Positions 39,551 to 42,050 of a DNA stretch of 64,000 nt are shown one piece after another. The DNA is taken from the NCBI GenBank assembly GCA_963719995.1, contig CAVRDW010000005.1, positions 2,169,975 through 2,233,974 of the forward strand, written 5' to 3'. The notes below the pieces were generated by a model. That model was not told the DNA's origin, ran no database searches, and worked only from the letters and a program-made list of their open reading frames with translations. The position numbers and the translations under genes were made by a program. Within the stretch, counting starts at the first letter, position 1. Each line of letters begins with the position of its first letter. This DNA comes from an uncultured beta proteobacterium (GTDB lineage: Bacteria; Pseudomonadota; Gammaproteobacteria; Burkholderiales; SG8-39).

Positions 39551-42050
39551 CTAAGGCACCAGCCTGAGCTTCTTCACCCCGCCCGCCTCGATCCGCTTGC
39601 GGTCCATCACCATCGGGATGTATTCGAGTTTCGCCCACGCCTGGGTGAGGCTCTTGTAGTGCGGCGAGAGGATGTTGCCGGACTGGCCGGCGGAGTGGAT
39701 GTAGAGCGAGTTCTCCAGGTCCGAGAGGTCGTAGATCGCGCGCAGGCTCGCGGCGTGGGTGTTGGCGTAGGGCCGCGCCGGGTCGTCCAGCCGGTTGCGC
39801 CCGACGTTCACGGTGTACGCGTCGCCCCCGGTCGGCACGGTGATGTCGAAGAACGGCGCGAGCCAGGCGACGCGGCCGAAGGGACGGTGCTCGTGGCGCG
39901 CGTAGTGCGCCGCGCCCCAGCGCCAGGCGGCCATGTCCTCGCCGTAGCGCTTGCTCAGATCGGCGAGCGCGCCATCGAGCGTCGCGGCGAGCAGCTCGTC
40001 GCAGGTCTCCACCGGCTTGGTGCGCACGTTGTCGCACCAGCGCGCCCTGCTTGTCCTTGTCGTTGAGCACGTTGGTCACGAACCGCGCGCGTGTGAGCCA
40101 GTTGCCGCGGAACGCGTCGCCCATCTCGTCGGCGTAGATCGCGCGCGAGAACTCGCGCCACCACGCGGAGACGATGAGCGGCTCGGAGCGGTCGCCCATC
40201 ATGCTGCCGTCCCACTGGCGAAAGGAGCGCGAGCGCACGTCGGCCCGCTTCGCTCCTTGGCGTCACCTTGGCGAGGCGAGGCAGGAGCTCCAGCAACGGG
40301 AGCGACACCACGTCGCCCTGGATGCGCGCGAAGCTGCCGATGGAGTGCTTGGGCAGCGCGCCAAGAAGCTCGCTGATGCGATTGGCACGGTAGGGCGGCT
40401 GCCACTCGCTCGTAATGTAGTGCGGGTAGTTGCGCGGCGTGATGCGGTGATTCGCCGTGACCAGCGCGCCGTCGGTCGGGTTGTGCGCGCGCGGCAGCTC
40501 CTCGTAGGGGATGAAGCCCGCCCAGTCGTACTTCGCCAGCCAGCCCGGCGCTGGCGCGAGGCCCTTCAGGTCGTTGTCCGGCTTGCGGATCGGCACGCGC
40601 CCCGCTGCGACGAAGCCGATGTTGCCCTGGGTGTCGGCGTAGACGACGTTCTGCTGCGGCGAGTGATAGTCGCGCAGCGCCGCGACGAAGCCCGGCCAGT
40701 CCTTGGCGTGCGCGATCTTCGTCGCCGCCTGCATGGTCAGGTCGTCCTCGCGCAGCGCGGTCCACTGCATCGCGACGACGTGGCCGCGCGGCGCGGCTTC
40801 CTGCGCGACGCGCGAAGCGTCCGAGATCACCGGGCCGTGGCGCGTGACGCGCACTTGCAGCCGCACCTCCTCGCCGCCCTTCACCTTGATCACCTCGTCG
40901 TGGATCGCGAAGGGCGTGGGGCCATCGGGCGTCATGTAGTTGCCCGCGCCGTCCAGTCGCTCGAGATACAGGTCCTGCACATCCGGGCCGGTGTTGGTGA
41001 AGCCCCACGCGAAGTGCGAGTTGCGGCCGAGGACGATGGCGGGGACGCCGGGGAGCGTCGCGCCGATCGCCTCGAAGCCCGGCGTGGTGATGTGCGCGAG
41101 GTACCACACCGCCGGCGCGGTGAGACCGAGGTGCGGGTCGTTGGCGAGTAGCGGCTTGCCGGTGGCGCTCCTCGCGCCCGACACCACCCAATTGTTGGAG
41201 CCGAGCCCCTCGGCTGGAAAATCGGGGTCAGGGCCGAATTTTTCCGCCGAAGAAAAATTCGGCCCTGACCCCAATTCTTTCTGCGGCAAAGAATTCGGCC
41301 CTGACCCCAATTTCGCCGCAATTGGGGTCTGACCCCAATCTTCCTTCGCTAGCCGCGGCGCCTCTTTTTCCATGGTCTGGTAGAGGCGCCGCAGGTCGGG
41401 GATCTCGAGTGGCGCTTCGCCGGGATAGGGCGGCAGCAGCTCGTGGATGCGCGCAAGCGGCAGCGTCTTCGAAAGGCGCATGCGCAGCAGCTCGTTGCGC
41501 CAGTTGCCGCCGAGGTCCCAGGCCATCATCTTGATCCAGCCGAGCGAATCGGCCGGCGTCCAGGGCTCGAACTTCGCGCCCGTCAGCCAGAACTCGATCG
41601 GCATCACGGGCGAAGTGCTCAGGAACGCGTTCACGCCCGCCGCGTAAGTCTCCAGCAGCGCCTGCGTTTCCTTGTCGAGGCGCTTGAAGTTCGCCTCGCG
41701 CGGAGCGCCGCACGCCGAGCGTGCGCAGGAAGCGGTCGGTCTCGAGCGCGCCTTCGCCGAACACCTCGGCCAATCGGCCCGCCGCGGTGCGCCGGTTCAC
41801 TTCCATCTGCCAGAGCCGGTCCTGCGCGTGCACGAAACCGAGCGCGTAGATCGCATCCTCGCAGGCTCGCCGCGCGGATGTGCGGAATGCCGTAGGCGTC
41901 GCGCAGGACCTCTACGGGCTTCTCCAGCCCGCCCAGCCGGATCTCGCCTTCCTCCTTTGGGAGGGATCGCTGCAGGTAGAAATAGGCCCCGGCCAGCGCT
42001 ACGGCGGCGAGGACCACCACCGCCAAGACCACCCTGAGAAGTATTCGCAC
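39551..42050 (-). CDS. Penicillin-acylase-family Ntn hydrolase (penicillin amidase or acyl-homoserine-lactone acylase-like). It has about 4 apparent frameshifts (near 40040, 40245, 41700, 41870) and an in-frame REP insertion.
   Basis: The colinear pieces are as follows. Signal/TM: VRILLRVVLAVVVLAAVALAG. Then RDAYGIPHIRAAS; EDAIYALGFVHAQDRLWQMEVNRR; and VNAFLSTSPVMPIEFWL. The beta-subunit N-terminus is GSNNWVVSGARSATGKPLLANDPHL. Later pieces are TNTGPDVQDLY and the C-terminal SGNILSPHYKSL. The GTG 42050 start is tentative. Confidence 0.8.
41218..41340. repeat. REP-like element cluster located inside the acylase coding sequence
   Basis: A forward copy lies at 41218 and inverted copies at 41254 and 41291. 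A short variant palindrome AATTGGGGTCTGACCCCAAT lies at 41321. In the gene frame the cluster is translated as [32 protein letters not shown]. Confidence 0.9.

Follow-up and report, generated by a model that had tools for sequence, protein, structure and literature searches.

In-frame palindromic repeats in the predicted inter-subunit linker of an S45 acylase, a site occupied by several unrelated repeat families in uncultured Burkholderiales

The stretch of DNA analysed here (the window) comprises 64,000 nucleotides (nt) of an uncultured beta proteobacterium of the Burkholderiales (contig CAVRDW010000005.1), and it carries on the minus strand a gene of the penicillin-acylase family in which a cluster of repetitive extragenic palindromic (REP) elements is read in frame, directly upstream of the codon for the catalytic N-terminal Ser. 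The cluster lies in the linker that joins the alpha part of the precursor to the beta part, a site colonised repeatedly by different repeat families, and we consider it probable that it is tolerated there, outside the fold of the enzyme.

The insert spans positions 41219-41339, where a repeat search resolved three REP units and one short palindrome (Table 1). The unit of about 23 nt is AAATYGGGGTCAGGGCCGAATT; on the coding strand a pair of direct units is accompanied by an inverted third one, with intervals of 36 and 34-36 nt between unit starts, and the 15-nt core GGGGTCAGGGCCGAA is found at 41224, 41258 and 41294. The repeat search also reported three direct copies of AATTCGGCCCTGACCCCAAT-type units, as well as near-complementary arms of 25 nt (41220-41244 and 41252-41276; 96%). 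The initial annotation had located four REP-type palindromes here, translated without a stop and ending shortly before the SNNWVV motif. The repeat search and the minus-strand translation confirmed its coordinates, content and translation, with the correction that the cluster consists of exactly three REP units plus one 19-nt self-complementary palindrome. In the beta-subunit frame the insert contains no stop, and its final base lies six codons (PAEGLG) upstream of the Ser. A missing stop is in itself unsurprising, since a TGA is present in only one frame of the doublet and the other two are open (KLGSGPN/FGPDPNF and WGQGRI/NSALTP). A fold of -83.9 kcal/mol was predicted for the 141-nt stretch (z = -8.09 against shuffles). 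An Rfam search returned nothing above threshold, the top match to a hairpin model of microRNA precursors reaching 36.9 bits where the gathering score is 114, so that no known RNA family is present, and no terminator-like signal was found inside the gene on the coding strand, the single hit being on the antisense strand.

In core, spacing and orientation the insert is identical to the intergenic clusters, and it is thus a standard member of the REP-type family native to this genome. The core is present in 25 copies in the 64-kb window against 0.24 expected, a number reached in 0 of 100 shuffles, and the triplet layout of the insert (34/36-nt spacing) matches that of the intergenic clusters at 9269, 18351, 21336 and 44068. 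The remaining clusters are doublets or triplets of identical spacing, intergenic or at gene ends. Among the main-type clusters, 9 of 11 are intergenic or overlap gene ends, with a spacing of 34-36 nt, and several begin right at a TGA stop. With REPs and with REP doublets forming hairpins (REPINs) the family shares a short (20-40 nt) imperfect palindrome in many copies (25 cores; arms up to 96% complementary) and a mostly extragenic placement near gene 3' ends.

The host gene is a member of the S45 family. Its main piece matches PF01804 (Penicil_amidase) with E = 9.5e-146, and a profile built from the homologues matches the D-succinylase 7eby (E = 8.8e-105). The identity of PvdQ was ruled out, as the NCBIfam equivalog NF051460 gave 60.2 bits for the orthologue P0001 and 72.8 bits for the homologue P0095 against a cut-off of 950. 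The GTG at 42050 is homologous to the ATG of P0001, the intact 828-amino-acid (aa) orthologue in locus L047, and the DNA of the two genes is 94.4% identical. The window copy lies in five pieces in three frames (0,1,2,0,1), the result of four +1 insertions; the first frame stops after 166 aa, and the insert is located in the middle open reading frame (ORF) of 559 aa (39955-41634). Together the five pieces cover the PF01804 profile contiguously (1-21, 20-71, 80-511, 486-529 and 533-675), which amounts to a match over the whole length of the family. The assignment to an acylase gene made in the initial annotation stands at the level of the family. What that annotation overlooked is that no single frame stays open over the complete gene in the window. 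A single uninterrupted precursor frame is found in P0001, P0002, P0009, P0015 and about 115 other homologues.

Precursors of the S45 family are laid out as a signal or anchor, an alpha part, a spacer and a beta part that starts with a Ser after a Gly (PMC11241749). We aligned the acylase with solved relatives, including glutaryl-7-ACA acylase (4hsr/4hst), E. coli penicillin acylase (1gk9), cephalosporin acylase (1ghd) and PvdQ (2wyb). The Ser of the G/SNNWVV motif (the slash marks the scissile bond) aligns with residue 1 of the beta chains 4hsr_B, 1gk9_B, 6nvw_B, 1ghd_B and 2wyb_B, and in the uncleaved precursors 1keh and 7ea4 it aligns with the residue that follows the spacer, bearing out its proposed role as the beta-subunit nucleophile. 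In an AlphaFold2 model of P0001, a helix (219-239) is followed by coil (240-283), and the predicted local distance difference test (pLDDT) falls to 24-31 as a block across the insert, in a model of moderate quality (mean pLDDT 62.6, from a 26-sequence alignment). The comparison with PvdQ and penicillin acylase that the initial annotation had proposed places the extra residues between the last alpha helix and the Gly-Ser bond. Alignment and model thus place the insert in the inter-subunit linker and not, as would have spoken against the idea, inside the folded alpha or beta part. By analogy with the rest of the S45 family (PMC11241749), the linker of this subfamily would be removed by autoproteolysis.

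A search of 5.8 billion proteins returned thousands of homologues, and the best 120 (64-93% identity) were analysed. Their sources are without exception uncultured Burkholderiales or Betaproteobacteria, chiefly of soil and sediment. The best relatives in a scan of genome contigs were 77% identical, all of them metagenome-assembled genomes of Burkholderiales or Betaproteobacteria, and a second scan, of metagenome contigs, yielded two relatives at 93-94.5%. The gene neighbourhood of sulfite reductase, LysR regulator, polyhydroxybutyrate depolymerase and acylase is conserved. From the conserved Leu of the DL..LY motif to the Gly before the Ser, the shortest homologues have 26 residues (...LKELYGTLERDAVQLAQFAPDNEGLG/S) and others up to about 108. 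When insertions of at least 6 aa were scored against the 794-aa baseline protein P0095, all internal ones in the 120 homologues fell at residues 234-238, 7-11 residues before Ser245; elsewhere in the roughly 800 aa none was present among these homologues, the N-terminal signal/anchor region excepted.

At the DNA level, the linker inserts are near-perfect hairpins that belong to at least five unrelated palindrome families and reside in intact genes (Table 1). The cluster of the window is also in frame in the 93% identical orthologue P0001, and likewise in L051, L052 and L053. In L001, L003, L006, L023, L047 and the window, 12-mers of the insert are found again beyond the gene at the same locus, so that the repeat type in each linker is that of its own genome. 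Within a clade that is otherwise free of repeats, L048 and L050 show clean in-frame gains of 33 and 48 nt, respectively, relative to L049. With the linker columns left out of the alignment, a neighbour-joining tree shows the repeat families interspersed and isolated insertions within the repeat-free clade. The number of independent insertion events is certainly at least five and likely a dozen or more. The comparison of orthologues suggested earlier thus revealed the same insert in close relatives, and other families or none in further homologues. The initial annotation had also raised selection on where such insertions survive, an idea strongly backed by the confinement of insertions of at least 6 aa to the linker and by the presence of at least five palindrome families there.

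In some homologues the repeat-like sequence reaches to 1-2 residues from the Ser (...GSVPIYAG/S, ...GSDPDSG/S, ...GDCPQLDA/S), and in a few the upstream helix is replaced too. Judged from these sequences, the scissile bond seems to need little upstream sequence. The intact proteins P0041, P0044, P0054, P0058, P0059, P0074, P0078 and P0083 have EGLG replaced by repeat-like sequence ending in AG, SG, GA or DA.

The recent history of the insert can be followed in the window, L047, L052, L051 and L053 (80-93% protein identity), all of which have the doublet at one common position, six codons ahead of the Ser. A further unit of 36 nt (12 codons) is present in the window, L047 and L052 and absent from L051 and L053. 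Only the window retains an intact short palindrome, of which L047 and L051 have decayed versions. Every length change among intact alleles is a multiple of three. Across the five sequences, 0 of 29 sites vary within the cores against 14 of 20 between them (Fisher p = 6e-8), at a synonymous divergence of the acylase of 0.13-0.37 (13-37%) among the relatives. Third codon positions within the cores are invariant as well, therefore the constraint acts on DNA or RNA and not on the peptide. This invariance is general behaviour of the repeat family; it is neither specific evidence for a role in the acylase nor simple neutrality. Repeats in coding DNA are therefore maintained like the intergenic copies.

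No public sequencing run was found to contain the exact sequence (best word share 0.34), and the four extra bases in the window copy were checked against near-identical contigs from such runs, which lack them. None of the four occurs in the metagenome contigs L054 and L055 (93-94.5% identical), and over 86 nt a contig of run X3 differs from the window in nothing but the second extra base, at 41698. After correction of the frame, the window protein keeps 283 of the 284 columns that are conserved at 97% or more in the 120 homologues, intact homologues showing 0-3 departures, and its dN/dS against L047 is 0.24, compared with 0.19-0.24 for pairs of intact orthologues. Frameshifts elsewhere in the window were sought by running Pfam on suspect ORFs and by aligning contigs to the window, a frame plot of GC content at third codon positions (GC3) being too noisy. 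Further +1 extras relative to the near-identical contigs were found at 12028 (ogt), 13649/50 and 14030. No single-base deletion was seen in the window against its relatives, all differences being extra bases. Since relatives are without the extra bases, other decay is absent and one-way extras occur in other genes, we conclude that the four are probably consensus errors of the window sequence. The initial annotation had named decay of the gene as a finding that would overturn its claim; the four frameshifts touch this point formally, although no other decay is present and intact orthologues keep the insert. Because these orthologues carry it, the conclusion on the insert holds either way. As for the other sites, the two Pfam domains of ogt lie in different frames around 12028, and 13649/50 and 14030 belong to a gene at about 13277-14350. 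The window is also one base longer at 37916, 37994 and 38020, near the start of an HlyD/AprE-like gene, relative to near-identical contigs or L047.

The neighbouring sulfite-reductase (NIR_SIR) gene contains palindromic repeats in its coding sequence too, at 45869-45906, 46211-46283 and 46803-46876 of the window. The third of these inserts is in frame, and the first two shift the frame by +1 and -1, giving three ORFs. In L047 (1-1726) the gene has three in-frame repeat inserts, which fall in gaps or between aligned domains in comparison with the solved homologue 1zj8, and the protein of REP-free relatives measures 565-572 aa. A near-identical contig of run X3 departs past about 45829 into different, repeat-free sequence, which suggests that strains about 99% alike elsewhere differ in whether they have the first insert.

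Our preferred explanation for the acylase is as follows. A repeat doublet would have entered the linker DNA, and the survivors would be those alleles that kept the frame length and avoided the TGA frame. The encoded peptide, rich in Gly, Ser, Pro, Asn and Asp, is predicted to be flexible and disordered and lies outside the folded enzyme. After folding, the Gly-Ser bond would be cut autocatalytically, as in other S45 precursors, exposing the catalytic Ser (PMC11241749), and the repeat peptide would be trimmed off with the spacer or would stay as a loose tail on the alpha C-terminus. The insert would cost little because a peptide outside the fold is either removed or left as such a tail. Later gains, losses and replacements of units would alter its length. 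Repeats land more widely in coding DNA and selection would retain only those in permissive places; in a protein of 800 aa that place would be the linker, which would explain why different families have colonised it repeatedly in different lineages. Here we infer the mode of insertion, the removal of the peptide and its neutrality. The idea of a selection filter is supported by the repeats in the sulfite-reductase gene, because these show that other coding DNA nearby is also hit.

Several points weigh against this explanation. The cores are conserved far beyond what is expected of neutral DNA and must therefore be maintained by homogenisation, re-insertion or selection, unlike pure tolerated junk. 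Removal of the spacer and maturation of the repeat-bearing precursors are, for this subfamily, taken from analogy with other S45 enzymes, and the moderate quality of the P0001 model makes the low confidence across the linker weak evidence. The extra bases cluster in the acylase, with none seen in the adjoining 42200-48200 in comparison with the near-identical contigs (partial coverage), which leaves room for a very recent real pseudogene whose in-frame repeats would be a leftover from a functional ancestor. The four uncompensated +1 insertions, with a first frame ending after 166 aa, are in keeping with such an inactivation, as is the neighbouring sulfite-reductase gene, which shifts frame at two repeat clusters. 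However, the conserved columns are kept, dN/dS is the same as between intact orthologues, and the changes are insertions only, never deletions, of the same kind as those in ogt and at 13649/50 and 14030, suggesting consensus errors. We judge a pseudogene to be rather unlikely, and even if it were real the conclusion for the lineage would be unchanged, given the intact orthologues that carry the insert. Much the same low probability is assigned to an insertion mechanism with a target preference for the linker, where a target sequence, a small linker hairpin or repeats attracting repeats, and not mainly selection, would have created a hotspot. Many independent events lie within a few codons of one another, the occupied site shows gain and replacement of units, and existing repeats are known to receive further insertions (Tobes and Pareja, as cited in PMC3184786). 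A shared target would nevertheless be unexpected for unrelated families of different sequence, and neither a target-site duplication nor a motif was identified. The three in-frame sites in the sulfite-reductase gene of L047 indicate that coding DNA is hit more widely, and the linker is also the sole place in the protein with length variation that is not due to repeats.

A different proposal is that the hairpin or the flexible peptide is useful and kept by positive selection, either as an mRNA structure that paces translation, slowed ribosomes letting the alpha part fold or be exported before the beta part, or as a linker that tunes autoprocessing. The very stable predicted structure (z = -8.1) would fit such a role, as would stems that stay invariant and loops that vary across orthologues at synonymous divergence up to 0.37, and hairpins of unrelated sequence that recur at the same place. 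Were it true, a gene would repeatedly have taken up mobile palindromes for use as an internal structural element. We find it improbable, since many close relatives are without the insert and have the baseline 26-aa stretch, copy number and family vary freely, and the coding strand shows no terminator-like signal; moreover, intergenic copies are equally conserved in their cores, so that conservation belongs to the repeat family and not to the acylase. Least credible of all is a native low-complexity linker of Gly, Ser and Pro that merely resembles repeats. The composition of the peptide is indeed linker-like, but core, spacing and orientation are identical to those of the intergenic clusters, the linker of each orthologue bears the repeat type of its own locus and REP-free alleles exist, and this idea is already contradicted by the repeat counts, the cluster layout, the recurrence within loci and the REP-free alleles.

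Table 1. Features of the acylase gene and its insert, REP clusters of the window, and palindrome families in acylase linkers.
Feature	Position	Strand	Remarks
Penicillin-acylase-family gene (MEROPS S45, PF01804)	39551-42050	-	GTG start 42050, stop 39551-39553
DLRRLYQTMEKEAPRLAKED codons	41338-41397	-	Last predicted helix before linker, end of alpha part (AlphaFold2 model of P0001)
Short self-complementary palindrome AATTGGGGTCTGACCCCAAT	41320-41339		19-20 nt; encodes WGQTPI
REP unit 1, coding strand AAATTGGGGTCAGGGCCGAATTC	41291-41313	-	Encodes KLGSGPNS; extra 36-nt unit
REP unit 2, coding strand GAATTGGGGTCAGGGCCGAATTT	41255-41277	-	Encodes ELGSGPNF; left arm of conserved doublet
REP unit 3, coding strand AAATTCGGCCCTGACCCCGATTT	41219-41241	+	Inverted relative to units 1 and 2; encodes KFGPDPDF; right arm of doublet
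PAEGLG codons	41200-41217	-	Conserved, directly before scissile Gly-Ser bond
Catalytic N-terminal nucleophile Ser codon (SNNWVV)	41197-41199	-	Aligns with residue 1 of solved beta chains
Beta-subunit coding part	41199 down to 39554	-	Begins with Ser codon
Extra base 1 (+1)	~41861 (within 1-2 nt)		Absent in L047, L054, L055 and near-identical metagenome contigs
Extra base 2 (+1)	~41699		Absent in L047, L054, L055 and near-identical metagenome contigs
Extra base 3 (+1)	~40215		Absent in L047, L054, L055 and near-identical metagenome contigs
Extra base 4 (+1)	~40047		Absent in L047, L054, L055 and near-identical metagenome contigs
Intergenic REP doublet, same family	43361-43434		Directly after PhaZ stop codon
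Further REP clusters	9269-9378, 18351-18460, 21336-21445, 44068-44178, 47471-47544, 49642-49715, 50406-50479
Palindrome family GGGGTCAGGGCCGAA, doublets/triplets			Window, L047, L052, L051, L053
Palindrome family GGGGTCAGACCCC			L001, L011, L013, L048
Palindrome family GGGACAGACCCTC			L003
Palindrome family GGGACAGTCCC			L006, L023, L050-like
Longer element, stem ~20 bp			L002, L004, L005, L016

Outside the acylase, the clusters at 9269, 18351, 21336 and 43361 (possibly also those at 49642 and 50406) start exactly at a stop codon (TGA followed by AAT..., or TAA followed by AT...); either the end of the repeat supplies the stop or insertion prefers this junction. The NAD-binding-domain gene at 43445-44098 ends in ...KLGSGPN, its last codons and stop lying within a repeat unit of the cluster at 44068-44178, and L047 and L055 have 61 extra bases of repeats at the end of this gene. 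No gene for a REP-associated tyrosine transposase (RAYT) was noticed in the window, although no systematic search was made, and such a gene was ruled out between the doublets at 49642 and 50479, as the interval 49716-50405 encodes a MORN-repeat protein. The 1430-aa ORF at 26930-31222 and most of about 55000-64000 do not pass a high-GC3 filter, unlike the remaining genes of the window, which hints at regions of different composition, possibly acquired DNA.

Palindromic repeats read in frame within genes are established from other systems. Rickettsia palindromic elements (RPEs) lie in frame in protein genes (Ogata et al. 2000, as cited in PMC3184786 and PMC3733652), and the parallel that the initial annotation drew with them is sound, in that an in-frame insertion leaving the gene open is seen in intact orthologues and, as far as the local frame goes, in the window. 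As these citing papers present them, RPEs are likewise in-frame palindromic inserts in host genes that stay open, thought to survive where the extra peptide is harmless. They are longer, however, belong to obligate intracellular alphaproteobacteria and leave their peptides in the mature proteins, whereas the present units are of about 23 nt (doublets of about 60 nt), come from free-living uncultured Burkholderiales, lie in a precursor linker beside an autoproteolytic site that has been hit repeatedly, and represent several families. By the size of the 23-nt units and by host, membership in the RPE family is unlikely, and the likeness is one of analogy only. REP dimers or clusters that lie within genes, with 20-30 aa encoded, are also described for the GTAG/CGTC super-families (Di Nocera et al. 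2013, PMC3733652); in the account given there, intragenic repeats reach 43-82 aa in Thauera and R. conorii, and most family members lie just downstream of genes. The present unit is without a GTAG or CGTC tag, as neither tag nor its complement occurs in the units and loops read from the cluster sequences. That survey, in its account of host genes, stresses DNA-repair genes, with no mention there of a precursor spacer as host site.

The inverted doublets, fixed spacing (34-36 nt), high copy number, long persistence and conserved cores resemble the REPIN/RAYT system as outlined in PMC8049555 and PMC3184786, where REPINs are described as extragenic (PMC8049555), unlike the linker copies reported here. 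The Bordetella element BRE, a repeat of Betaproteobacteria, is comparable in that it sometimes lies wholly within coding sequences and that the number of copies per locus varies (Hot et al. 2011, PMC3110155). It was ruled out as the same element, as it is a tandem repeat of about 90 bp and not a 23-nt palindrome in inverted doublets, and no sequence relation was apparent. The spacers of penicillin G acylase, cephalosporin acylases and PvdQ share the precursor layout (PMC11241749); these characterised spacers are ordinary sequence, whereas here the spacer consists largely of mobile palindromic repeats and ranges from 26 to about 108 residues between relatives. Our literature search on acylases, spacer peptides and palindromic repeats found no matching report. 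In-frame palindromic repeats in genes are thus known from RPEs, intragenic REPs and BRE; what is new is the linker of an autoproteolytic precursor as host site and its repeated colonisation by multiple families.

The reasons why in-frame repeats survive where they do have so far mostly been argued case by case. The acylase family provides a natural replicate experiment, with dozens of intact orthologues and at least five repeat families at one stretch of about 10 residues, and this replicate pattern makes the idea of a selection filter directly testable. The results also mark the linker of this subfamily as freely replaceable, which is of use in enzyme engineering, and they carry a warning for annotation: motifs such as GSGPN, FGPDPDF and WGQTPI in proteins of soil Burkholderiales are derived from repeats and are not conserved domains. 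The conserved cores of repeats that lie in coding DNA bear, in turn, on how repeat families are maintained.

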